DNA of 37,965 nucleotides, taken from IMG/VR virus record IMGVR_UViG_3300010052_000157, positions 1 to 37,965 of that record. The stretch is one strand, 5' to 3'. This stretch comes from a virus. Its lineage: Duplodnaviria; Caudoviricetes. Positions 1,682 to 23,693 of this stretch are shown one piece after another. The notes under the pieces are model-generated. The model was not told the DNA's origin and did not search any database. It worked only from the letters and a program-made list of their open reading frames with translations. Numbering within the stretch: position 1 is the first letter of the stretch; each line of letters begins with the position of its first letter. Both the position numbers and the translations under genes were made by a program.

Positions 1682-4600
1682 TTACGTCACCTCAGTCCAC
1701 GTGGCACCGTCATCGATGCTGAAGAAGCGCGTCGGGCCTGGGTCGCCTCCCTTCTTGGCCAGCAATGACCAGGCACCTACAGATGGATCCCAGGACAGCC
1801 CGAACGTTTCGGGCTCGAACGTGATCTCCGAGCCGGCATTGTTCTGGATGGCCGTAGCGGCCGACATCGATGTGTCGCCCGGGCCTTGGAAGCGGAAGAA
1901 CAGCTTGCCGAGGCCAGCTGAACCGCTGTTGTAGCGGAACGCGATCGCAAGCGTCTCGCCCTCAGGGTTCGACACGATGCGCCCAAAGAAACCGGGGTTG
2001 ATCAGAGGCACCTCTGCCTCCCACGTCTCGCCGTCATCGTCGCTCGAGCGATAGCGGAGCGCTCCGAGTCTCGTGTAACCGACCCACAGCCGCCCCCATG
2101 CAGCGTAGGCAAGCGATGGCAGTGACGCTTCGTCTCCATTGGCAACCTCAACTTGTGTTTCAAATCCGAGCTTCGGCTGGCCGTGCGACCGCCGGACGAT
2201 CATCGAGTCGCGCTCGAGCACCTCGTCGTAGATCACGAGCGCTTCCCACCTGAGCCCGTCGGGAATGTGCAGCACGTCAGGCTCGCGTCCGATCTCGGCC
2301 GATGCGGGCCGGCGGGCGATCAGGCATCCTTGCCACGGCCGAATCGCTCCGATGCCATCAGCACCATGCCGGATCACGTGGAAGCCCTCGTTGTTATTGA
2401 CCGCCTGGCGGTGGAACGTCACCGGCCATCCGGAGACCTCTGGAATCAGGAGGCTGGTGTAGACGTCGGGGCCGTTGAGGCTCATGGCCTCGTTTCCTAT
2501 GTAGAACCGCCGCTCCTCGGCATAGCTCCACGTCTCGAGCCCCCAGACGCCCGTTTGCGCCAGCGTCGACTCGTTTCGGATACGACTCGGCCAGACGCAG
2601 ACCGGAGGGCACCCCGCGCCGTTCACAAGCAACGCATACGGGAAGCTGTAGCCGCGAGGAACCAGCATCGCGATCGCGGCGTCATCGGCGTCCTCCACCG
2701 CGGATGGAGTCTCGACCGCATCGAAGAAGACCGCAAGCTGCGTGGCGATGTCCTGATCGTGTGGATCTGCGAGGAGAGCCAGGTTTTTGAAGCAGATCCA
2801 ATCGACTGGGCTTGGCATCCAGGCGAGCTTTACTCCCGGGAGCGGCGGGACGCCTGGAGGCAACGCCAAGGGAGTCGCATGAAGCGATCCGCCGTAGTAG
2901 TGGGCGACGTTGCCAAACCGCACGCCCGGCCCGTCCGGCCATACGACAGCGTGGTTGCTCCGGTTCTCCGGGAACACGCTGACCTGGTCGGTGCTCCGGT
3001 AAAGAATCGGGAACTTGATCTCGCAGTCGCTGGCCGCTGAAGCGACCTCAATCGTAAAGAGCAGTTCGGCAGCCGTCCTGCCGGCAAGAAGCGAGAACGC
3101 GTGCACCCGCTCCGGGTCGACCATCGCGGCGTCCGACTCGCCTTGGTCGAGAAGGTCGAAGCCCTTGTCATCGAAGTAGAACTGGCCGAGATCCTGAGCG
3201 TAGCTCCCTGAGTAGATCGTGTCGGTTCCGTTTGATGGCCGGAGGTAGCGCCCGGGCACGCGCGTCAACTCGACCTTCGTGCCCGAATAGCCAACGAGCT
3301 CGACGATGACCTGGACGATGTTCGCGGGATCCCAATCGACTTCGAACTCGCTCGCGATGTGCGGCCACAGGTACGGCCACTGCGTGAACGATCCGAGGGC
3401 CACCTTCGCCTTGATGATCGTCTTCGTTGGATCCGGCGTCAGCGTGATGCCATCGGTCCCAAACGATCCGCTGCAGTCTTCAAACGACCAGGAGGCGGAC
3501 GAGAGAGAATCGAGCTCGAGTTCGCTGAGCGGCGTCACCGCGTCAACCCTGAAGGTCTCGTCTCCCCACCAGCTGGTCGGAGCGCCGAAGACGCCTTCAA
3601 TAAATCCAGCTTGGGCACCGTAGAGCAGCGGGGCCGTGAAGAGGGTGGTTCGCCTAAGCGTCCGTTCCGTTCCTGGAAGCGAGGGGTGTTCGCAATACTG
3701 ATCACCCTTCGACAGCCAGTAGCCGTTCGAGATCTTGTCGAGGAAGACCTTCCAGATGTCCTGGGCATCAGGAATCCCGTCGTCGTCGGTGTCGATCGTG
3801 TTGCGCGGGAACCAGTCGAAGAACGACCAGTGCCTCGAGCCCCAATAGTTGACATACCGCACGAGCGGATCCGCGTGGTACAGGTAGGGCAGCAGGTCCG
3901 GATTGTCGATGTCGTCATCGACGATCGGAGTGAAGGCCGCCCCTTGGGTGACATAGCAGATCTCGTCAGGTGGCGCCGTTGGCGGAATCACCGTGCCCGG
4001 CGGCTCCTCAGGGAGGGCCATCGGACAGGAGACCGGGCCGACGATCTGGGCCGTGTAACCGATCGCTTCGTAACGGAACTCGCTGTGCTCGGCCGGCGCC
4101 GGCACGGGGTAGCTGAACGTATCCTCGATCGGGTGTGGATCGTTGCCCACGACGGCGAGGAGACGAGACTGTCTCGGGTGGACCTCTTCAAGCGCTGGGA
4201 CCGTGTGGACACCTGAGCCGATTCCGTCAATGCCGCACGTGTGGAATGCGGTCTGCTGCGTCCTCGGCATGCCGCCGCGGTAGACCACTTCTCGGTGGCC
4301 TGAGCCGATCCGCTTGACCGACGCCGGAAGGTTGGGGACCGTCGTGACCTGCGCAGAATTGCCCCACCACGTGAGCCTAGACTTGTACACGTCGACGTGG
4401 CCGCCGGTCGCCGGGCCGTTCGTGCAGTAGAGTGGCTGGCCAGTCAGGTGCAGGGTCGTTTCTCGCTCGAGGTGCTGTTCGGCCGAGATCTCGACGGCTG
4501 CGGTCGTTGCGGCAACGAGAGTGGCCGGATCAGGAGATTCGCAGTCGCAGTCATCGTCCGTCGGAACGTCCAGAAGGTCGATGAGGACCGGGAGTCCTTG

Positions 4601-5215
4601 CCAATCGGACGAGCCTGGCTGCTTGAACCGCCATGCCGCGTCCGTGATGCGAGCCTTGCCGTAGGACTCGCTCGAACCCACAACCGTGCTGTGGTCGACC
4701 GCGCCGAGCACCGGAACGGGGTTCACCGCGGCCGAGGCGGTGTAACGCGGCGGGATGCCCAGGAGCGGGATGCCGGCCGTCGAGAAGAAGTACGTGTTGT
4801 CGAGGGTCGTTGCCCCTTCCGAATGGACCAGTGACCCGTTGAGATAGACCCTGAGCTCGCTGAACTTCAGCCTCCAGGCGCCGCCCGCCATCGAGTAGAG
4901 GACGCCGTCGTCAATCTGCACGACGTAGGGGATCCCGCCGGTCACGATCACCGTGCTCGAGAGCGTGATGGGGATGTCGACGCCCAGCAGCGGAATCCGA
5001 ACGTAGGCGTATGTGCCGATGAGCCCTGGGCCAGCGCCTTCGATGCCTTGCGCCGAGATCTCGATGCCTTTCTGGACGTACACCGAGTCCCAGCACCATT
5101 GGGTCGTCATGCCTGCGGCAACGATGACCTGGCCGCTCGCGATCGCCTTCTCGAACGTGATCGTGCCGCGCAGCTCGATCCGCTCGAAAGGAGCTTTCTT
5201 GTCTCGATAGGGCAT
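1682..5215 (-). CDS. Large minor tail/receptor-binding protein with C-terminal Asp-box (BNR) motifs
   Basis: 1177 aa; Asp-boxes SSDDDGETW and FSIDDGATW; DTDDDGIPD Ca-binding-like motif; downstream of tape measure gene. Confidence 0.65.
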   Translation of the reverse strand: MPYRDKKAPFERIELRGTITFEKAIASGQVIVAAGMTTQWCWDSVYVQKGIEISAQGIEGAGPGLIGTYAYVRIPLLGVDIPITLSSTVIVTGGIPYVVQIDDGVLYSMAGGAWRLKFSELRVYLNGSLVHSEGATTLDNTYFFSTAGIPLLGIPPRYTASAAVNPVPVLGAVDHSTVVGSSESYGKARITDAAWRFKQPGSSDWQGLPVLIDLLDVPTDDDCDCESPDPATLVAATTAAVEISAEQHLERETTLHLTGQPLYCTNGPATGGHVDVYKSRLTWWGNSAQVTTVPNLPASVKRIGSGHREVVYRGGMPRTQQTAFHTCGIDGIGSGVHTVPALEEVHPRQSRLLAVVGNDPHPIEDTFSYPVPAPAEHSEFRYEAIGYTAQIVGPVSCPMALPEEPPGTVIPPTAPPDEICYVTQGAAFTPIVDDDIDNPDLLPYLYHADPLVRYVNYWGSRHWSFFDWFPRNTIDTDDDGIPDAQDIWKVFLDKISNGYWLSKGDQYCEHPSLPGTERTLRRTTLFTAPLLYGAQAGFIEGVFGAPTSWWGDETFRVDAVTPLSELELDSLSSASWSFEDCSGSFGTDGITLTPDPTKTIIKAKVALGSFTQWPYLWPHIASEFEVDWDPANIVQVIVELVGYSGTKVELTRVPGRYLRPSNGTDTIYSGSYAQDLGQFYFDDKGFDLLDQGESDAAMVDPERVHAFSLLAGRTAAELLFTIEVASAASDCEIKFPILYRSTDQVSVFPENRSNHAVVWPDGPGVRFGNVAHYYGGSLHATPLALPPGVPPLPGVKLAWMPSPVDWICFKNLALLADPHDQDIATQLAVFFDAVETPSAVEDADDAAIAMLVPRGYSFPYALLVNGAGCPPVCVWPSRIRNESTLAQTGVWGLETWSYAEERRFYIGNEAMSLNGPDVYTSLLIPEVSGWPVTFHRQAVNNNEGFHVIRHGADGIGAIRPWQGCLIARRPASAEIGREPDVLHIPDGLRWEALVIYDEVLERDSMIVRRSHGQPKLGFETQVEVANGDEASLPSLAYAAWGRLWVGYTRLGALRYRSSDDDGETWEAEVPLINPGFFGRIVSNPEGETLAIAFRYNSGSAGLGKLFFRFQGPGDTSMSAATAIQNNAGSEITFEPETFGLSWDPSVGAWSLLAKKGGDPGPTRFFSIDDGATWTEVT

Positions 5216-5223
5216 GGTGCTGT

Positions 5224-5481
5224 CTAGAATCCGCCCAAGACATCATCGCTGGCGAAGTCGCTGATTCCGAGAACGAACGCTCGGCGGCCGTAGGTGGGCA
5301 ATGCTGGGTCTTCGTCTACGATGGGGGCGACGCGCTTGACGGGCAAGCTGAGAACGAAGGCCACTTGCTCATCCGTGAGGACACTCTGGATCGAGGTCGA
5401 CCGGGGCTGACCTGTGATCATATTGGCCTCGCGAAGGGCAAGGTCTCCTAAGGCCTTCTTGAAGATGCCTGCTGCGTCCAT
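5224..5481 (-). CDS. Hypothetical protein
   Basis: 85 aa; start overlaps the stop of the upstream gene (TAATG). Confidence 0.65.
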   Translation of the reverse strand: MDAAGIFKKALGDLALREANMITGQPRSTSIQSVLTDEQVAFVLSLPVKRVAPIVDEDPALPTYGRRAFVLGISDFASDDVLGGF

Positions 5482-8174
5482 TAGAACCTCACCTGCTGGA
5501 TCTCGTAAGTGGCCATTTGGTTAGAGTCGTTGCCCAGGTCAGGGCTGCAGGACCTCACGACGCATTGCCACTCGACGCCGCCGTCGTTGATGACGCAAGG
5601 ATCTCCGAACCGGAGCTTGCGCTTCTTGCCGCCGCCCTCTTCGTGATCGATGAAAGCAAGCGGTGCATGAACCCTGAAGAGCTTGTAGCCCTTGCAGAGA
5701 ATCGGATAGAGCCTGGCTCCAACGAAGGCCACCGCGGCTTCGGTCTGAAGCATCGGGTCGATGTACCAAAGAGGCACTTCTCGTCCGAGCCAGTCGGGAT
5801 TGTCGGGGCCAGGCGCGGCCGTCGAATCGGGATGGTGCCGATAGCTGTCTGGGTTGACCATAGACAGCGTGAGCTGATGGATCGGTGTCGACTCGAGGTA
5901 GCCGACGCCCGTAACGATGAGCTTGTTGGCCACTGGCCGCTTGATACGATCGCGCAAGCCGATGATCGGGATCGTAACCGCAGTCGATGCCGTGTGCTCG
6001 ATGTCCCGGATCGTGCCCTCCTCGATCTCCCGCGCTGCGTACGCACCGAGCGTGAACGCCTTTCCCTCCGGCTGTCGCTCCGTGGTGAAGTAGGCGACGT
6101 TCGTGTAAGGTGCCTTGGGCGGGAAGATCAGCTTCCACTTGCCGTAGTCACCGCCGTTCTCGTCATCGACTAGGGCAGCGCCAAGATAGTCGCGCGACAG
6201 ATACTCGATCGCCTGGCCGAGGTCTGAGAGCGGCCTGATGACGTACATGTTCTCGTCGGCGCCCAAGACCGGAAACAAGCGGACGTCCGAGTCCGGAATG
6301 TCAACCATGTCCGCGGAGAAGCCGCAGCGCCGCAGGAGGATCTTGATGGCGTCCGTGATCTTGTAGGGCACCCCGATGCCTGCGTTCGGATCCTGCATGA
6401 ACGAGAACATCGAAGTGTCTCGTGTCTCCTGGATCCGCAACCACCTACCGATCGACTTGACGTCGTAATCGTAGGCGACCGGGAAGGGGTGGGCCGTCCC
6501 CAACTTGCTCATGCCCGCGTTGTCTCGCCGGCGTCGCCTGTTCGCATCTGCGTCTTCGATGTAGCCGCGGTGCAAGATGACCCGCTTGGCTGGGTCCTCT
6601 GGGTCGTACTCCGTCTCGATTCGAACGGGGAACGAGATCGACTCGCGCAGAAGATCGAGTTGGCGCCGCGTGTCTGAGACCTTCCAACCAGCGTTGCAGA
6701 GTGACGGGTCGGACCCGCCGTCCATGATGGAGAGCGATCCCTTGCGAAGCGACCCGCCCTCGACGTTACGCCCCTCATAGGTGTCGAACGAGGCGGCCTT
6801 CACCGCGCGCATCGACAAGAGGGTCGGGCTGTTCAAGCCGTCTCCAAGAAGGTTGAAATCTGCGAGCCAGAACGTAGGCACGTAGCCGGGCGGGAAGTCG
6901 TATTCGGACCACCTTCCAGCCTGTCCGGATGTGGCGATCGTCCCAGAGCGATCGGCCGCGATCGGGCTGCCGCTCGAGCCCTTCAGCTGCATCGTCACGT
7001 CGGTAGCGCTCTGCTGGTCGAAGTACCACTCGATGCGCAGCGTCTGGCCCCATTCGAAGCCGCCCTGCGTGATCGAGAATTGCACGTTGCGGACGAAGCC
7101 CGATGTTCGGAGCTTCAGTCGCTTCACTCGGAACATCGACCGGAAAGGCCTCGGCATGTCCAGGCGGATCGCAGACGGCGTCGATGCGGGAGGATTCTGA
7201 TCCAACCTCGGCACAACCCAGTCATTCACTTTGATCAACCCAGCTGCAGCGGTCGCCGCGTTCGCAAGCGCTTCGACCTGGGGGGCTGCGCCACTGACAT
7301 CATCCACTGCCCACTCTGCGAGTCTGAACTCGATCTTGCGGGTGTCCTTCTGCCGCCTCGGCCGAATGAGCAGCAAGAAGTTCATGTTGGCCCCTGAACT
7401 AGGGTTGGGGAACTTCATCGTGGTACGTCGCTTCCACGTGTAGGCGGGGACAGGGGGCGGTTCCGTAACGGGCAGGGCTCGCCCGCGCTCGAAGAGCTGG
7501 ATCTCGCCATTGTCGAACACGACAGCCGCGTATTGGCCAGTGCCGAGGAAGTCATTGGTGTGGCCAGCTGGACCGCTGAAGTAGGCAGTTCCGATGACCA
7601 AGCCCTTCTGATTGACGTCGCCGTAGACCGTCAGTAGGAAGGCCAGCGGTTGATTCGGCGCATGCGCCTGCTTCGACACGAGGACCCGGTCCATGACCAG
7701 GTCATTCCCTTCAACCGTTGGACCCGGAAATGCCGCTTGGTCCGCTTCGAGCCTGAATGTGGCGGCGTTGTCGAGCCCCACTGTAGCGGGCTTGCGCTTG
7801 ACGAACGCGATGCCCGACACAGGAGGCAGAAGCGTTCCCCCGTAGGCGCCACCAACTTCCGGTTTGGTGCGACACAGATACCGCTGAACGAAGCCTGGAG
7901 GAATAAAGGCGTCAGCTGTCGTGAGGACTCCCTCGTCGCTGCCGATGCCCCAGAAGGGGGTTCGAACTGCCCGGACGTCTTCGGCAAGCTGGATTCCAAG
8001 GCCAGAGCTGTAGACCGTGCCCACAAGGTTTCCTGTGTTGAGCGCCATATCCAGAGCGCTCTTGATGACGCCAAATCCGTGCTCGACGATGACGTTGTCG
8101 TCGACGTCGTACACGATGTGCGTCTTGCGCCCAGGCGTGACGGCCGCTTCGGGGGTGTTTCCAAATCCAGGCAT
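5481..8174 (-). CDS. Putative tail tip/baseplate hub protein
   Basis: 897 aa; first same-strand gene after the tape measure gene. Confidence 0.6.
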   Translation of the reverse strand: MPGFGNTPEAAVTPGRKTHIVYDVDDNVIVEHGFGVIKSALDMALNTGNLVGTVYSSGLGIQLAEDVRAVRTPFWGIGSDEGVLTTADAFIPPGFVQRYLCRTKPEVGGAYGGTLLPPVSGIAFVKRKPATVGLDNAATFRLEADQAAFPGPTVEGNDLVMDRVLVSKQAHAPNQPLAFLLTVYGDVNQKGLVIGTAYFSGPAGHTNDFLGTGQYAAVVFDNGEIQLFERGRALPVTEPPPVPAYTWKRRTTMKFPNPSSGANMNFLLLIRPRRQKDTRKIEFRLAEWAVDDVSGAAPQVEALANAATAAAGLIKVNDWVVPRLDQNPPASTPSAIRLDMPRPFRSMFRVKRLKLRTSGFVRNVQFSITQGGFEWGQTLRIEWYFDQQSATDVTMQLKGSSGSPIAADRSGTIATSGQAGRWSEYDFPPGYVPTFWLADFNLLGDGLNSPTLLSMRAVKAASFDTYEGRNVEGGSLRKGSLSIMDGGSDPSLCNAGWKVSDTRRQLDLLRESISFPVRIETEYDPEDPAKRVILHRGYIEDADANRRRRRDNAGMSKLGTAHPFPVAYDYDVKSIGRWLRIQETRDTSMFSFMQDPNAGIGVPYKITDAIKILLRRCGFSADMVDIPDSDVRLFPVLGADENMYVIRPLSDLGQAIEYLSRDYLGAALVDDENGGDYGKWKLIFPPKAPYTNVAYFTTERQPEGKAFTLGAYAAREIEEGTIRDIEHTASTAVTIPIIGLRDRIKRPVANKLIVTGVGYLESTPIHQLTLSMVNPDSYRHHPDSTAAPGPDNPDWLGREVPLWYIDPMLQTEAAVAFVGARLYPILCKGYKLFRVHAPLAFIDHEEGGGKKRKLRFGDPCVINDGGVEWQCVVRSCSPDLGNDSNQMATYEIQQVRF

Positions 8175-8217
8175 GATTCCTCGCGGGATGGTTTACAATC
8201 AGATGGAGGGCAACGCG

Positions 8218-8763
8218 ATGGCAGTCACCTATCAGGATTGGTTAAAGTCAGTCAAGCAGTTCCTAGCCAGCCGTAGGCCGGACGTGAAGTTTGATCAACT
8301 GGACCCGAACCATCTTTACAGTTCGTTCCAGGCCGGACTGTCCCCAATAGACTTTGTGCAGCAGGGTCAGTTTAGGTTCAACCCTGCTGTGCCGCCCGCG
8401 CCGGCGTTCCAGCTACCGCAGGGTCAAGTGAAGCAGGCCACAAACCCTTTACACATCGTTTTGTTCGTAATCCTTTTCGGAGTCATTGGGTCGTGCATCG
8501 GATGCGGGCTTTTTCTGGGCAGCGTTCAATCTGATGTCGAGCGCAAGATGGCGTCCACCCCAACTTGTTCACAGGTGCAAGCCGCTGTACAGATTGGGAT
8601 GACAACGTCCCAGGTCACGGAAGCTATTGGAGGACCTGACAACGTCCAGGAAATGAACAGACTAGGCGTGACTACTCGCTACTGGTACTACCGGTGCCGC
8701 GACGGCCAGATTCAGATCGTCTTCGATTACGGCATAACGGTAACAAGCATCAACAGGTACTAA
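8218..8763 (+). CDS. Moron membrane protein with C-terminal SmpA/OmlA(BamE)-like domain
   Basis: GGAGG at 8205-8209 before ATG 8218; TM segment IVLFVILFGVIGSCIGCGLFL; 'VQIGMTTSQVTEAIGGPD...WYY...IVFD' pattern; antisense to the tail operon. Confidence 0.7.
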   Translation: MAVTYQDWLKSVKQFLASRRPDVKFDQLDPNHLYSSFQAGLSPIDFVQQGQFRFNPAVPPAPAFQLPQGQVKQATNPLHIVLFVILFGVIGSCIGCGLFLGSVQSDVERKMASTPTCSQVQAAVQIGMTTSQVTEAIGGPDNVQEMNRLGVTTRYWYYRCRDGQIQIVFDYGITVTSINRY

Positions 8764-8794
8764 CTTTCGCGCGGTTTTTGCTACAATGCGGAGA

Positions 8795-9148
8795 ATGAAA
8801 GGCGAGAAGCCATCGATCGCGCGCGTCTGGCTCGGAGTCGTCTCCGTGCTTCTGATCCTCTACGGGGTCTACGCACTAGTGATGGCCATTTGGACATTGC
8901 TTGCAGTCAACAAGAACGTGACCCTGCCTTATTCGCCCGACGTGACCGGGGTCTCAAAGGACGTAGCAGAGCGAGCGAACGAAAACTGGGTGGGTTTCGT
9001 GGTTGAGTTCGGCATTCTCAGGGCCCTAGTGTCGGCGCTCGTTGGGCTCTCCGGGCTCGTGTGGCTTGGGGTCATCGACAAGATAGAGCACATTCACCAC
9101 TTGACAGCCAACATCTGGAGAGAGCTCGCGGCCAAGAACACGCCCTGA
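8795..9148 (+). CDS. Moron membrane protein, 2 TM segments (start 8786 or 8795)
   Basis: Two hydrophobic stretches; TGCTACAAT (8779-8787) lies 7 nt before ATG 8795. Confidence 0.65.
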   Translation: MKGEKPSIARVWLGVVSVLLILYGVYALVMAIWTLLAVNKNVTLPYSPDVTGVSKDVAERANENWVGFVVEFGILRALVSALVGLSGLVWLGVIDKIEHIHHLTANIWRELAAKNTP

Positions 9149-9157
9149 GGATTAGCC

Positions 9158-10783
9158 CTAGAGCACGATCGCACCGAGAGCGACTGCCTGCCCGCGATAG
9201 TAGGCTTCGATGTTGGCGAACGACGTCGCCCCGAGGGGTAATGCGCCGCGTGCCGCACCCGATCCCCATCCCACGGCTCCCGTAAGGTCAGTTACGGCTC
9301 CCGTGAGTTCCTTGATGGCCTTCGTGTTGCTATCGATCGAGCTGCCCGACTTGGACTGCGATCCGCCACCACCACCGCCCAGTAGGTCCCACAACCACTT
9401 ACCGCCTTCCATTGCGCCCCTCACACCTGGGAGAACATCAGGAGCAACATTGAAGATGATCTGCATTTCCTGGGCTTTGGCAGAGACCTGATCCATAACG
9501 GCCAATAGGACTCGGAGCCCCATGTTCATGATGGGCAGGCCCTCGGCGCCGATCTTGGCGATGAGCACCTTGGTCTCTGACATCGCCTTGTTCGACATCA
9601 TGAACGCGTCGGCTGCTTCCCGCTGCTGGTTCGGGTCGAACATCATCGGGTCGTTCATGATCATGTCGCGCACGCCAGGAGACGCCTTGCGCAACATCCC
9701 CAACATCTCAAGGTCCATGCCAGACCGCGACGCCGCGCGGAAGGCAGAGGCCTCGTCAGGCATGTTCACGAGGCGATCGAGCATGCGCATGAACTTGCCG
9801 CTGTAGTCTGTGCTCCCGCCGTACTTGGCCGGAACTGCGTCGATCCCAGCTGCAGACATCTCGCTCATGGCAAAGATGTCGCCCCAAGCGCCCTCCGCCC
9901 ACTGCCTGGCCATGCTCGCCATGTCGCCCGGTCCCTTGCCGAACCCTGCGCCCAGCCCAGCCAACCGTCCGAAGTTCGGTCCACCACCTGCGGCAAAGCT
10001 CGCCGACCCGTACCCGCTGATCATGTCGCGGGCCTGCTTGGTCGCCTCGGCGAAGAGCTTCACGCCCGTCGTCGCTGCTGTGAACGCGATCGCGAATGGG
10101 CCAACCAGCGACAGCACGCGCATCGCCGCGCCCACGGCTGCACCGCCACCGCCACCACCGCCGCCGGCAGCAAGCACCGCGGCAGCGCCACCGCCTCCAC
10201 CGGCACCACCCGAAGCGCCCCCGAGCCCGGACAGGTCGAAGTCTGGGAGAGACGAGGCAGCCGATGCGGCCTTGCCAACCGGCCCCCCAAGCGCGCCGCC
10301 GGCCAGCTTCGTGATCATGTCGGCGATCGTGTCATCGCCCAGGAACCCTGCGGCTTTGGCCTTGCCGACGAGCGGCATGAACGGTCCAAGATTGAACCGC
10401 GAGGTCATGATCATGTCTTGGAGCGCGTACGCCGTGGGATTCTGACGGCGCTTGAGCGCGTTCTCTGCTCGTCTGGCCGATCCTTCTGCCCTGGCCAGCT
10501 GCAACTCGGCCATCTTCGTGGCGTTGGCGTCGCCGCTGGCCACGGCCTCCTGGTACGCCTTCTGTGCCTTGGTCAAACGTTCCCAGGGGTTCACCGCCCG
10601 CGAGGCGGACTGCGCTTGACGGTCGACCGCGCTCGAGACTGCATCGCTGCCGTTCACAAGCTGGAGCACGCTCTTCGTGAGTGCGTCCTGGTGCTTCGTC
10701 AGCGTCCCCATGGAATCAGCTAGGCGATCCAGGACATCCAGGACCGCGGCGCCGCCGGTTTCGATCTCGAGTCGTAGTGCCAT
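9158..10783 (-). CDS. Tail tape measure protein
   Basis: 541 aa, Ala/Gly/Met-rich, helical; directly follows the frameshifted chaperone pair. Confidence 0.8.
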   Translation of the reverse strand: MALRLEIETGGAAVLDVLDRLADSMGTLTKHQDALTKSVLQLVNGSDAVSSAVDRQAQSASRAVNPWERLTKAQKAYQEAVASGDANATKMAELQLARAEGSARRAENALKRRQNPTAYALQDMIMTSRFNLGPFMPLVGKAKAAGFLGDDTIADMITKLAGGALGGPVGKAASAASSLPDFDLSGLGGASGGAGGGGGAAAVLAAGGGGGGGGAAVGAAMRVLSLVGPFAIAFTAATTGVKLFAEATKQARDMISGYGSASFAAGGGPNFGRLAGLGAGFGKGPGDMASMARQWAEGAWGDIFAMSEMSAAGIDAVPAKYGGSTDYSGKFMRMLDRLVNMPDEASAFRAASRSGMDLEMLGMLRKASPGVRDMIMNDPMMFDPNQQREAADAFMMSNKAMSETKVLIAKIGAEGLPIMNMGLRVLLAVMDQVSAKAQEMQIIFNVAPDVLPGVRGAMEGGKWLWDLLGGGGGGSQSKSGSSIDSNTKAIKELTGAVTDLTGAVGWGSGAARGALPLGATSFANIEAYYRGQAVALGAIVL

Positions 10784-15970: not shown

Positions 15971-17086
15971 TTAGCGAATCGCGGGCTCTGCGACACCGAG
16001 TCGCGCGAGCTCGCCCTTGATGGCGCTGATCCGCACGGCCGCTTGTTCTCGTTCGATGGGTGAGGCCGAGTCAGGGAGACTCATCAGCCGCTGGAACTCT
16101 GCAGAGAGCTCGTCGGCCTGGTCCTGATCTGCCTTCATCTGATTCGCGAGAAACTCGCGGTCGACGCCGTGCGACGTGCGCACGATCGGCGGTTGCGCCG
16201 GGGTGTTCTCCAGCTCCTTCACCCTCGCTTCCGCTGTCTCCACACGAGTTAGCGCGTCCGAGAGCTGTTGGGTGGCATTGTCGCGCTCGGTCTTGAGCGC
16301 GTCAAATCGGTTCGTGAGGTCATCGAATTCGGCGCGAGTAACCACGTCCTCATCGAGTCGCTGCAGCAGGTCATCGCTGGCTTCGGCGATCCGCTTGAGC
16401 AGGGACGGATCTTCGAGCTCGCCGCGGGCGCAGATCGGAGCCACGTAATCGGCGAACTCCATGATCGCCTCGCGGGCCTCGGCTTCCTTGTTCGCAGAGT
16501 TGCCGTTCTGGATGTCCCACAGGATGGAGGAGAGCACTTCCTGAGCCATGTAGCGAAGGGTGCCCTTCTCACGCTGGGCTACCTGGGTGGCGAACACGCC
16601 GCGCTCGATCTCCTCGACTTCGACTTCGTATTCGGTAGAAGCATCCTCGGCGCGAACGGCCGTGATGACTGCGTCGGGGTCCTTGGGGCGGTCGACAAGG
16701 CTGGTCTCGATCCAGCGGCACTTCTCGACGTCCTTGCCGCGCATGAGTGTCGCCTGAACGCCGACGCTGAGCCCCTTGTAGACGCCGCGCTTGACCTTGT
16801 TCCATGCGTCATCGTCGACAACCTCGAGCACCATCTTGGCGCCCGTGTCATCCCACTCGACGGATCGGGCAACGCCGACCGCATCGGGCTGGTGCATGCG
16901 CCGGACGTTCGCCCATCGCAGATAGTCGGGGGTTGCGTCCTCCATGGCCGTACGCTTGAGGCGGAGTCCGCCTTCACCGGCCACGGTCTCATTGACAAAC
17001 GCGTAGGCCTCGACCGTCCGATCATCGTCGTTGACACGCTTGATCTCGGCGAAGACCTGGATGGGCTTCATTGTGATGGTTTTCAT
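15971..17086 (-). CDS. Prohead protease with C-terminal scaffold
   Basis: 'RRMHQPDAVG', 'KVKRGVYKGLSVG', 'ETSLVDRP' protease motifs, followed by an acidic coiled coil. Confidence 0.85.
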   Translation of the reverse strand: MKTITMKPIQVFAEIKRVNDDDRTVEAYAFVNETVAGEGGLRLKRTAMEDATPDYLRWANVRRMHQPDAVGVARSVEWDDTGAKMVLEVVDDDAWNKVKRGVYKGLSVGVQATLMRGKDVEKCRWIETSLVDRPKDPDAVITAVRAEDASTEYEVEVEEIERGVFATQVAQREKGTLRYMAQEVLSSILWDIQNGNSANKEAEAREAIMEFADYVAPICARGELEDPSLLKRIAEASDDLLQRLDEDVVTRAEFDDLTNRFDALKTERDNATQQLSDALTRVETAEARVKELENTPAQPPIVRTSHGVDREFLANQMKADQDQADELSAEFQRLMSLPDSASPIEREQAAVRISAIKGELARLGVAEPAIR

Positions 17087-17119
17087 GGTTTTGGCCTCGT
17101 GTTTCGTGAGGAAGTGGCG

Positions 17120-17217
17120 TAAAATAGAAGTGGCCCTTAGAGGAGATGAGTCTCAGGTAGCTCATTAACCAGCGGAGGTAAGGCAAGCCAATCCGCGCCT
17201 CTAGGGGCTTTTCTTTT
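17120..17217 (+). ncRNA. Candidate structured antisense RNA overlapping the portal stop codon
   Basis: TAAAAT at 17120-17125; 11-bp closing stem 17133-17143/17198-17208 enclosing two hairpins; followed by ttttctttt. Confidence 0.45.
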
Positions 17218-19273
17218 CGAACATGGTTACGAGTAGGCGTACACGCCGGCCGTCGTGGACCTTGCGCATTGCAGCGATGTGAGTCTCGCTTTCGAACTCC
17301 ACGTGCCTGGCAGTCTTTGACTTAACGGCCATTCCCGACAGGAGCGTTTGAAGTTTCCCTTTGACCTCGGGATGCTTAGCGAGGATTTTCGCCAGACCGT
17401 AGCCGCGCTGCTTCCGCCCGTTCGGAACTTCACCCCAAGGCAGGTCGATTGCCCCGACTTCGGGATGATTCAGCGCACCAAGCGCGATACCAGCCTGGAT
17501 CTCCGACAGGAACTGTTCGGCTTCATGGGCCTTGCCGCGGAACTGGTTGTAGACCGGCCCGAAGGCGCCGTAGTGGCTCGGCTTGATCTTCCCCCTGACG
17601 TGGTGTTGCTGGAAGTGTGGGTGACTCGAGATGCGCCCACTCACCCAGCGCCCGTTCGCGTCCCGTGGTTGGCTTGGATCGTACTTGCGAAAGACTTCCC
17701 GGACATCATCGGCCGTTGAGCATGCGCTCAGGGCTTCCGAGATCTCGGCGCGGTCGAACTCGTTTAGCCACTCGGACGCAAACTCGCAGGCTGGCGATCC
17801 GTGCTCGCGTAGCCGAGACAACGCCTTGCGTTCCCACCTGCGAAGATCCGCAGCGCGCTGCTCGTCTTCGTCGGGATCCTCATCATCGGCCATGTCGCCT
17901 TCGGTGTCGTCGAACTCATCGGGCTTGACCGAACCAACAAGATCGTCACCGCCTTCGATCGGCTCGAGGCCCTCGGCCTGGCGAGCTTCGTTCGGGGTCA
18001 TCCACGGGCCGCCGACAGCCTTGGCCAGACGGTCCGTCCGTTCGGCGGGCTCCTCCTCGCCCTCGGTCACATTGACCACGGACAGGCTCGAGTAGCCTAG
18101 ACGCTCGAGGAGATCGTTGTAGAGATCAGCGCGCATCGCCAGCAGGCGGCCTACGCCAAACTGCGACGTGGCCGAGAAGCTCTCCTCCTGGCTGACCTTG
18201 TACTGCTCGCCCGCGTAGCCGATCGACGCCGGCTGTACACCGAAGATCGAGCACGTCCGGCGCATCAGCCAGAGCTCGAACTGTTGGAAATCGGCGTCCT
18301 TGCGGCTCTGAGTCCAGACCGGCTTCGTTCCGTCCGGGACCAGGCGGGTCTTGCGCCGGTCCGCCGTCTGGCCGGCAAGCATCGCATCGAAGTAGGCGGC
18401 GTATGTCTGCAACTGCTCGGGAGTCCATTCCTTGGGCACTGCGATCAGCTGGTCGGGCGTATTGCCGTCCGTGAGCCACGTGCGATTCCACTCGTCGGCC
18501 TTGAGCGCCGAGATCGTCACGCCGGCGAGCCATTCGACAGGCGAGCGGTAGTACGGCGTCGACGAGACCGGATACATGCCATCGTAGATCAGCTCGTCCA
18601 TCGAGATCGAGGGCCGGACGTTGACGCCCTGGACCCACTGCTCGAATGCGTCGTTCGGGTGCTGCCAGCCATAGGGGTCGACCTTGGGCTTGATCGTTGC
18701 TGAGTCAATCGCTACGACCTGATACGGCTTTCCGGTCCGCGTCTGCTGAATGAACGCAGCAAAGGCACCGATGACAAGGGCATCCTCGAAGATCTGATCC
18801 TCGAAGTGACGGCGCACGAGGCCGAATCCGCCCAACCCGCCGGCCCGCGAATCGAGCCAGGCCGCGGCTTGGTCGATCAGCCGCTTCGTTGCATCCGAAT
18901 CATCCTTGGCGTCCTTGGCCACCAGCTTGATCGGCACTGCTTGGACTTCGGTCTTGAGGTGGTTGATGCACGACCGCATCACGTCGTAGGTGTCCGCGAG
19001 CCGCCGGAGAGTCTCGAGATCGATCTTCGTGCGCGGGCGCATCCGCGGCGAGTGCGGCTGGCTGTAGATGAACGGATTGTCGAAGGCGTACATGCCTGGG
19101 CGGGGGCCCTGCGGCACGCTGTTGCCCTGGATGGCCGTGGCAAGCGCCTCTGCAGCTCGGCGCGTGGCCATCTGCTCTGCTTCCTGCCGAATGACGGCCG
19201 ACTGTTCGGCGACGCGAGCGTCGACTTGCGCGGCGATCTGTCGCTCGATTACGGTAAGTGGCCAGATTCTCAT
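17201..19273 (-). CDS. Portal protein fused to a C-terminal putative PBECR-like nuclease domain
   Basis: Portal motifs ('VVAIDSATIKP', 'ICSIFGV'-like RTCSIFGVQP, 'MTPNEARQAEGLEPIEGGD'); then KYDPSQPRDANGRW and 'IDLPWG...GYGLAKILAKHPE...LLVTMF'. Confidence 0.85.
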   Translation of the reverse strand: MRIWPLTVIERQIAAQVDARVAEQSAVIRQEAEQMATRRAAEALATAIQGNSVPQGPRPGMYAFDNPFIYSQPHSPRMRPRTKIDLETLRRLADTYDVMRSCINHLKTEVQAVPIKLVAKDAKDDSDATKRLIDQAAAWLDSRAGGLGGFGLVRRHFEDQIFEDALVIGAFAAFIQQTRTGKPYQVVAIDSATIKPKVDPYGWQHPNDAFEQWVQGVNVRPSISMDELIYDGMYPVSSTPYYRSPVEWLAGVTISALKADEWNRTWLTDGNTPDQLIAVPKEWTPEQLQTYAAYFDAMLAGQTADRRKTRLVPDGTKPVWTQSRKDADFQQFELWLMRRTCSIFGVQPASIGYAGEQYKVSQEESFSATSQFGVGRLLAMRADLYNDLLERLGYSSLSVVNVTEGEEEPAERTDRLAKAVGGPWMTPNEARQAEGLEPIEGGDDLVGSVKPDEFDDTEGDMADDEDPDEDEQRAADLRRWERKALSRLREHGSPACEFASEWLNEFDRAEISEALSACSTADDVREVFRKYDPSQPRDANGRWVSGRISSHPHFQQHHVRGKIKPSHYGAFGPVYNQFRGKAHEAEQFLSEIQAGIALGALNHPEVGAIDLPWGEVPNGRKQRGYGLAKILAKHPEVKGKLQTLLSGMAVKSKTARHVEFESETHIAAMRKVHDGRRVRLLVTMFEKKSP

Positions 19274-23237: not shown

Positions 23238-23693
23238 TCAGATCTCGAGCTTTGGCTGCATGTGGACCGGCATAACGACTTGTGGGGGGCCAGCAACAAT
23301 CGGAAACCCGCCACTTCGCAACTTTGCTGCAAGCGACTCGTCGAAGGTTACAAAGTAGCCGCATCCAATGGCAAGCGCAGTGGCGACATGCACGGCGTCC
23401 GGAGGCTTAACTCCGATTTGCTCGCCAATGTCGCCCGCTGATCTCGCGATTAGTCGGGATAGTTGATGTGGTTGTGCCTTGTGCCCATCGAACAGCGAAT
23501 CCATGACCTTTGGGTCTCTCCGGCATTCCGCGAATATCAGCGTTGATGCGGCAAGAACCTTGCGGCCCTTGGCGACCTCTGAGAAGAGGTACGTCAACCC
23601 GTCTCGCTCAGGCTGGGGGCGATCTTCGTTGTCTAGCCATGAGATGACAACACAAGTATCGACATAGACAAGTTCATCTCGACCAGCTGTCAC
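23238..23693 (-). CDS. PIN domain (VapC-like) ribonuclease
   Basis: YVDTCVVI, STLIFAEC, KPPDAVHVATA, FVTFD: the conserved acidic residues are present. Confidence 0.88.
   Translation of the reverse strand: MTAGRDELVYVDTCVVISWLDNEDRPQPERDGLTYLFSEVAKGRKVLAASTLIFAECRRDPKVMDSLFDGHKAQPHQLSRLIARSAGDIGEQIGVKPPDAVHVATALAIGCGYFVTFDESLAAKLRSGGFPIVAGPPQVVMPVHMQPKLEI

Follow-up and report, generated by a model that had tools for sequence, protein, structure and literature searches.

How a cell that produces phage particles withstands a predicted nuclease domain fused to a head protein, with no immunity gene beside it, is the question raised by the portal gene of a provirus, the entire 37,965-base record of which (the window) was analysed. 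To our knowledge, neither a target nor an immunity factor is known for PBECR domains. Up to 26% of polyvalent proteins contain such a domain (PMC5512222; statements on cited papers refer to the accessible parts of their texts). A first-pass annotation had proposed that a structured RNA, antisense to the operon at the 3' end of the portal gene, stands where the immunity gene would be expected and serves the domain as antitoxin, decoy substrate or cofactor. The analysis described here revealed a conserved module of nuclease domain and RNA, which is real and apparently undescribed.

Portal gene and PBECR1 domain

The portal gene lies on the minus strand between the terminase gene and that of a probable head protease, which is followed by the major capsid gene (Table 1). 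The window sequence was confirmed in contigs of DNA run X1, and relatives were found in the other three of the four runs (X2, X3 and X6). Elsewhere in the window, a PIN-domain gene (23238-23693, -) stands immediately upstream of the lysis genes and is preceded by an unnamed 262-aa gene. Two unannotated ORFs lie opposite the tail genes (8017-9148, +), with a box and a strong hairpin at 8317. Three large ORFs of the late region (1682-5215, 5481-8174 and 9158-10783, all -), of 1177, 897 and 541 aa, gave no match in Pfam, PHROG or NCBIfam.

Table 1. Features of the portal gene, its downstream spacer and the predicted antisense RNA in the window.
Feature	Position	Strand	Basis
Portal protein gene, 690 aa, variable C-terminal domain	17201..19273	-	Pfam PF04860, PHROG 2662
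PBECR1 domain (predicted BECR-fold RNase), K61, H66, R102, T115	17204..17569	-	Pfam PF18809
Likely head maturation protease, next gene of the operon	15971..17086	-	PHROG 80, E 1.8e-10
-10-type promoter box TAAAAT, weak -35	17120..17125	+	sequence; same post-domain position as boxes of homologues
Predicted antisense RNA, ~85 nt, three-way junction, U-rich tail; ends inferred	17131..17217	+	folding
P1 5' arm	17133..17143	+	sequence, pair probability
P2 hairpin GAUGAG/CUCAUU (P2 of the first-pass annotation, 17146-50/17161-65)	17145..17166	+	folding
P3 GCGGA/UCCGC (arms 17172-76/17192-96)	17172..17196	+	pair probability
P1 3' arm, overlapping the portal stop codon (17201-03, -)	17198..17208	+	sequence
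U-rich tail	17209..17217	+	sequence

The C-terminus of the portal protein matches PF18809 with E 1e-07 and 32.8 bits (cut-off 27.6) over residues 603-641, whereas its PBECR1 homologues match over the entire profile. The structure model of the domain (pLDDT 88) has BrnT and two CdiA toxins, all BECR-type, as its top structural matches, which are weak (Z 5.1-5.7, rmsd 3.1-4.0). Foldseek with this model gave nothing at E 0.001, a sequence search for a solved homologue of the domain gave none, and a plasmid search gave zero matches. Of 88 domains, that of the window included, 86 have H66 and all have T/S115; a catalytic role of the His and the Thr, assigned by position, follows PMC5512222. The window PBECR1 has the His and the Thr expected of an active RNase, an activity that is predicted here as it is in the accessible text of that paper.

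In relatives of the portal protein, the C-terminal slot holds PBECR3, LPD3, an unnamed domain, a His-phosphatase, MuF or 2H, or is empty. The protein thus carries a variable C-terminal effector on a head protein, as MuF-type polymorphic toxins do, the head protein being the portal and not MuF. The unnamed domain, of ~130 aa, occupies the slot in P0155, P0156, P0158 and P0172 and has no Pfam or NCBIfam match.

The spacer between the portal and protease genes is 114 nt long. No ORF of at least 30 aa with its own start lies wholly within it; a 54-aa ORF starting with TTG at 17186 (17022-17186, -) begins in the spacer and runs into the next gene. A separate immunity gene between portal and protease is absent, as had been implied in the first-pass annotation.

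Predicted antisense RNA in the window

The plus strand of 17087-17217 folds with -48.1 kcal/mol (z -2.78), which 2 of 200 shuffles equalled, as compared with -32.0 (z -1.06; 27 of 200 shuffles) for the minus strand. Pair probabilities at the tested pairs of P1, P2 and P3 were 0.999-1.0. The helices, the TAAAAT box and the stop-codon overlap agree with the sequence in every coordinate given in the first-pass annotation. The -35 element is weak, as described there, and a consensus scan of the window lists neither a promoter nor a terminator at the site of the RNA.

Rfam 15 at the gathering score gave no match in the window, and none up to E 10 in 16950-17350; a tRNA search with ARAGORN gave none. 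A likeness to the hammerhead, pistol and C4/CI RNAs was dropped in the absence of an Rfam match.

A multi-way junction follows 8 of the 56 comparable boxes in the window, and of these eight, the box at 17120 stands out by the lowest energy per base and by the only U-rich tail. The window site by itself is moderately unusual; it stands above chance because the arrangement recurs in homologues.

Recurrence at homologous loci

At E 0.001, the window domain has 1040 relatives; the top 150 are mostly internal domains of long proteins. Three sources of loci were used: 5 phage records, the top 80 of 231 viral loci, and the top 80 of 94 genome matches, which yielded 79 loci. Hits ending before query residue 110 or with fewer than 160 bases downstream were dropped. 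The resulting 164 hits were reduced at 90% identity to 88 distinct downstream regions, the window among them. With few exceptions, the hits fall in virion or polyvalent proteins, and the reading frame is open across the downstream region in nearly all of the 88. The domain accounts for 122 aa of the 690-aa portal protein and elsewhere is found in proteins of up to 7283 aa.

Of 87 distinct homologous sites, 53 have an antisense box with a multi-way junction after the domain, mostly within open reading frames; the combination occurs at 2 of 87 on the sense strand and at 0/85, 0/87, 0/86 and 3/86 at four control offsets. Among 86 intact domains, the tested interval is without a TAnnnT box in 7. 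The mean fold z of the 95 bases after the domain was -2.70 for the antisense and -2.38 for the sense strand, and -0.1 to -0.8 at eight other offsets. Fold stability hardly separates the strands, the antisense strand being the more stable in 48 of the 88 regions.

The promoter boxes are more telling. Between 80 and 120 bases after the domain, the antisense strand contains TAnnTTTG, which we take to be the Bacteroidota -7 consensus, at 23 of 28 Bacteroidota loci (0.5 expected) and at none of the 43 others. TAnnAT/TAnAnT is present in the same interval and orientation at 34 of the 43 others (4.0 expected) and at 3 of the 28 Bacteroidota loci. On the sense strand of this interval, host-type boxes were found at 0/28 and 8/43 loci, respectively. 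Hence, the type of box follows the host group, and the RNA is assigned to the antisense strand because the promoter boxes settle the strand and folding energy does not.

The arrangement is carried by the cultured phages BPP-1, PBC5, Itty13 and Atu_ph08. Rfam 15 gave two tRNAs and otherwise nothing on 40 homologous loci (no match on the first 20). Pattern scans for close copies of the window RNA returned only two phages, L166 and L167 (see below), and chance matches.

Fold of the core family

For a covariation analysis, 22 of the 88 regions, which share loop motifs and lack an optional middle hairpin, were picked by hand and aligned on sequence alone. Three 7-bp stems and five loop-loop pairs were read off this alignment. 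In the 22 RNAs, 94.4% of the 571 cells are paired, as compared with 33-55% in slid controls, and two-sided changes occur in 23 of the 26 pairs (counts not corrected for phylogeny). RNAalifold gave the same three stems.

The loop-loop contact was checked in a fit-free manner in 59 of 87 regions, with the two loops anchored on columns outside the test. L2[2]-L3[12] is a Watson-Crick pair in 57 of the 59 (U-A in 37, G-C in 20), and both pair types are present in both main clades of the domain tree, which is a quick and poorly resolved one. L2[1]-L3[13] is paired in 58 of 59 regions with four pair types, and L2[3]-L3[11] likewise in 58, where it is invariant. The first two of these pairs have the top two loop-loop MI scores, not corrected for phylogeny.

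On the antisense strand, the stems contain 37 G-U as against 9 A-C oppositions. Compensatory changes within coding linkers alter the encoded residues. The L3 motif in coding linkers stays in one reading frame, and L3 position 3 is G in 98%. Taken together, the alignment supports for the core family a compact three- or four-way junction with kissing loops (a loop-loop pseudoknot). Such a compact RNA with paired loops would suit a protein ligand better than an antisense binder.

Association of the RNA with the nuclease domain

In four loci with tandem PBECR1 domains (L091, L123, L131 and L142), each domain has one RNA; in L142 (1470-2460), domain, RNA and promoter are tandemly duplicated as a 513-base unit. 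After non-nuclease domains of the same proteins, host-type boxes are rare (InPase 0/19, ParB 1/10, LPD5 0/5, LPD22 1/6), as compared with 3/4 after MuF-C and 3/5 after LPD3; PBECR2, PBECR3 and PBECR5 gave 1/3, 1/2 and 0/1, respectively. Domain ends in these counts were extrapolated from Pfam.

At 6 of the 7 MuF-C loci that were folded, the domain is followed by an antisense hairpin of another kind, which has an (A)AUUGG loop and mostly a promoter box. The hairpin loci are L195:3776-3850 (933W L0134), L150, L153, L095, L135 and L196. A folded antisense RNA with a box was also observed after LPD3 (L112, L138 and L164), LPD13 (L136) and PBECR2 (L108). Gene gp30 of phage Mu, a single case inspected by eye, overlaps the next gene, G, and has no such box; its domain is called inactive in PMC5512222.

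No box at ~90-110 nt with a junction was found among portal relatives without PBECR1, namely 17 loci and 5 further ones with a stop; this set includes some duplicates and many distant relatives, and one of the 5 stops is premature. The DNA comparison covered portal fusions other than P0128 and those of the P0161 type. At the stop of one PBECR1-less portal gene (L183:4175-4270), two strong hairpins (z -6.5) are present with no promoter box. The idea that the RNA accompanies the nuclease domain is thus borne out, both by the 53 of 87 homologous sites and by the portals that lack domain and arrangement alike. The further proposal of a module embedded in the head operon describes the layout in the window correctly; as to the family, the RNA goes with the domain and not with the head operon, and lies mostly in linkers of giant polyvalent proteins.

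In an Akkermansia assembly (G003 C88, L101:696-3857), PBECR1 (2001-2363) is inserted in frame in MutS domain III, and its RNA (~2357-2455, -) is antisense and four-way. The MutS bearing this cassette is the only MutS match in the genome. As judged by such arrangements, the domain and its RNA are shown to move as a unit.

Other arrangements were encountered among the loci. In L138, the RNA recurs 117 bases further on (2477-2556, -), this second copy having neither a domain nor a clear box, and the upstream open frame contains a tRNA match of 60 bits (1110-1181, +). PBECR1 shares one open frame with an AraC-type HTH in L126, and with NUDIX and DUF2213 in L073.

Relation of the window RNA to the family

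Conserved structure beside homologous domains, for which a homologue alignment with a covariation test had been suggested in the first-pass annotation, was found in the core homologues; the window RNA itself is missed by the family models. Covariance models R1 and R2, built without it, left it unmatched at E up to 10 and 5, respectively. It is devoid of the conserved loop sequences of the family. The 3' part of its P3 weakly resembles the 13-nt L3 loop, the best in-place 13-mer (17185-97) scoring a non-significant -2.9 with the L3 weight matrix. In its best fold, GCGGA/UCCGC forms a nested helix and the loop-loop contact is absent. A family-like refold was rejected, having -22.9 without the pseudoknot as compared with -37.3 for the fold of the first-pass annotation, i.e. 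14 kcal/mol worse.

Several other divergent members are likewise missed by R1, yet have the box and the junction. Counted from the conserved FE codons, P1 begins after 7 nt and the box after 96 nt, both inside the range of the homologues. The window RNA is linked to the family only by position, strand, size, promoter spacing and the layout of a multi-way junction.

In the sister phages L166 and L167, a deletion has left the last 26 codons of PBECR1, and the RNA and the box remain (L166:4560-4640); protein P0157 has the same domain deletion. Between the window and L166, the RNA (17133-17208) has 1 difference in 76 nt, as compared with 20 in 78 in the domain remnant and 206 in 1199 in the portal core. 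The sole difference changes an A-U pair of P1 to G-U on the plus strand, and this G-U is present in L167 as well; the box in L166 is TAGAAT. The first 100 bases of the protease gene have 3 differences. Because the start of the protease gene is also near-identical, the conservation of the RNA may be explained in part by recent DNA exchange.

Possible function of the RNA

The protein is the likely partner of the RNA because there is one RNA per domain, each domain family has its own RNA fold, the two loops are paired to one another and no immunity ORF is present. The RNA may directly neutralise the PBECR1 RNase domain, as an RNA antitoxin acting like those of type III and failing the operon features of that type; on the sequence evidence, we hold this reading with about even confidence. 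Host RNA polymerase would transcribe the RNA from the antisense box, probably constitutively in the lysogen and through late expression. The RNA would then bind the predicted RNase domain directly, as a pseudo-substrate, and keep it inactive in the virion-producing cell, and the activity would be released once the protein enters a cell without the RNA. Release in the next cell is plausible for giant injected proteins. It is doubtful for the portal fusion, as the portal should stay in the head; there the RNA may only protect the producing cell. Against neutralisation count the retention of the RNA in the sister phages despite domain loss and the failure of the family models to match the window RNA.

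The RNA is fully complementary to the mRNA and may pair with it. A silencer acting in cis, which by pairing with the late mRNA after the nuclease domain would trigger decay and curb leaky expression in the lysogen, perhaps also superinfection, would account for a convergent, complementary RNA that overlaps the stop codon in the window. Needing no protein partner, it also fits an RNA kept after domain loss. RatA and SR4, type I antitoxins with 3' overlap, count in its favour. STnc6030 of prophage BTP1 offers a phage precedent, being antisense to late genes and excluding superinfection (PMC7067206). For silencing, one RNA per mRNA would suffice, whereas the number of RNAs follows that of the nuclease domains and their fold is specific to the domain; likewise, pairing with its own complement requires neither loops that pair mutually nor bases kept at third codon positions (98% G at L3 position 3). 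Silencing is for these reasons considered unlikely.

One RNA per domain and a compact fold would fit equally well if the RNA were cargo or a cofactor, bound or trimmed by the domain and carried into the virion as a decoy against RNA-based defence in the next host. In PMC5512222, packaging and injection are assumed for PBECR domains, and RNA binding is proposed for an inactive one. This role appears improbable given that 86 of 88 domains retain the candidate catalytic residues, that a promoter of host type on the strand opposite the late operon suggests expression in the lysogen, that the MutS cassette has no virion to enter and that the RNA resembles neither tRNA nor any Rfam family.

The in-frame insertion in the only MutS found in G003, the exact tandem copies of domain, RNA and promoter in L142 and the variable portal C-terminus would also be expected of a selfish cassette that maintains itself by addiction and enters genes in frame with no benefit to the phage. 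The fold is not known to have mobilising activity, almost every hit lies in a virion or polyvalent protein, and addiction presupposes a neutralising mechanism, whether direct, antisense or by way of cargo, so that we give this explanation very little weight. A structure of the minus-strand mRNA (terminator, processing or translation signal), or conservation owing to the linker peptide or the 54-aa ORF starting at 17186, would agree with the single frame of the L3 motif and the good folding of the sense strand (mean z -2.38) and is scarcely credible in view of host-matched boxes on the antisense strand only, 37 G-U against 9 A-C, homologues within long open frames and compensatory changes that alter encoded residues; a minus-strand terminator or processing hairpin, which the first-pass annotation had named among the cases that would overturn its proposal, is very unlikely.

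Beyond PBECR1, we lean slightly towards the view that BECR-type virion effector domains form a class of protein-RNA modules. Each family (PBECR1, MuF-C, LPD3 and perhaps more) would have its own RNA gene written backwards in linker codons and would move as an in-frame cassette, even into mutS, the RNA being a ligand of the domain, as immunity factor or as cargo for the next host. A cognate RNA, if true, would explain how a cell can produce an RNase that forms part of a structural protein, or of one thousands of residues long, with no place for an immunity gene behind it, and why PBECR domains are shuffled so freely. It would imply an RNA-antitoxin architecture unlike type I or III and RNA genes hidden in coding linkers, missed by intergenic searches. 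It would also offer a direct route to the cloning and assay of PBECR nucleases, for which cultured carrier phages exist.

Comparison with known systems

A search of the openly accessible literature, as far as main texts and abstracts go, gave no account of these RNAs. In the accessible main texts of PMC5576092 and PMC5512222 the word "antisense" is absent, as is "noncoding RNA" in the latter, and no RNA partner is described there. The accessible part of the Minerva preprint (10.64898/2026.09.22.753630) has none of the terms BECR, MuF, polyvalent and portal, and that of a BECR preprint (10.64898/2026.08.28.747851) lacks "noncoding".

A variable C-terminal effector on a head protein is shared with the MuF polymorphic toxins (PMC5576092) and the PBECR polyvalent proteins, among which a PBECR-portal fusion has been described (PMC5512222). 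Immunity to MuF toxins is attributed to a small downstream ORF, present in 89.4% of 191 (PMC5576092), whereas the window portal has none.

As in type I and other cis-antisense systems, the RNA in the window is complementary to and convergent with the mRNA of the putative toxin. Type I toxins are small stand-alone genes, whereas the nuclease here is a 122-aa domain of a large protein. Three-way junctions of ~70-90 nt, as found here, are also formed by the purine riboswitch aptamer and the P1 C4 and P4 CI RNAs; the riboswitch has an L2-L3 contact, and C4 and CI are phage immunity RNAs. In contrast to these, the RNA described here has no Rfam match and is antisense and downstream, not in a leader. 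The OOP RNA of phage lambda is another RNA antisense to phage genes. STnc6030 of the Salmonella prophage BTP1 is likewise antisense to phage genes and expressed in the lysogen, where it overlaps a DNA-injection gene; it differs in being 786 nt long, in acting by mRNA pairing, and in having no compact conserved fold reported and no tie to a nuclease domain in the accessible text (PMC7067206).

In the AbiF/RCd22 system of a C. difficile prophage, a prophage toxin is neutralised by a structured RNA through direct binding, in cis and in trans, as would be the case here. Its toxin is a Cas13-related Abi_2/AbiF protein and not BECR, the toxin gene stands alone, and the RNA has two repeated motifs (bioRxiv 10.1101/2025.04.15.648962).

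Type III systems (ToxIN, CptIN and TenpIN) likewise combine an endoribonuclease with a small RNA of tertiary fold and occur in phages (PMC12283969); the pseudoknot of their RNAs has its counterpart in the loop-loop pseudoknot supported in the core family and is absent from the best fold of the window RNA. In type III, the RNA consists of tandem repeats that precede the toxin gene on the same strand and share its promoter, with a terminator between the two (PMC12283969), whereas here the RNA is single, downstream and antisense, often inside codons, and has its own convergent promoter box. Unlike a type III toxin, the predicted nuclease belongs to a virion protein, and the sequence before it codes for the portal.
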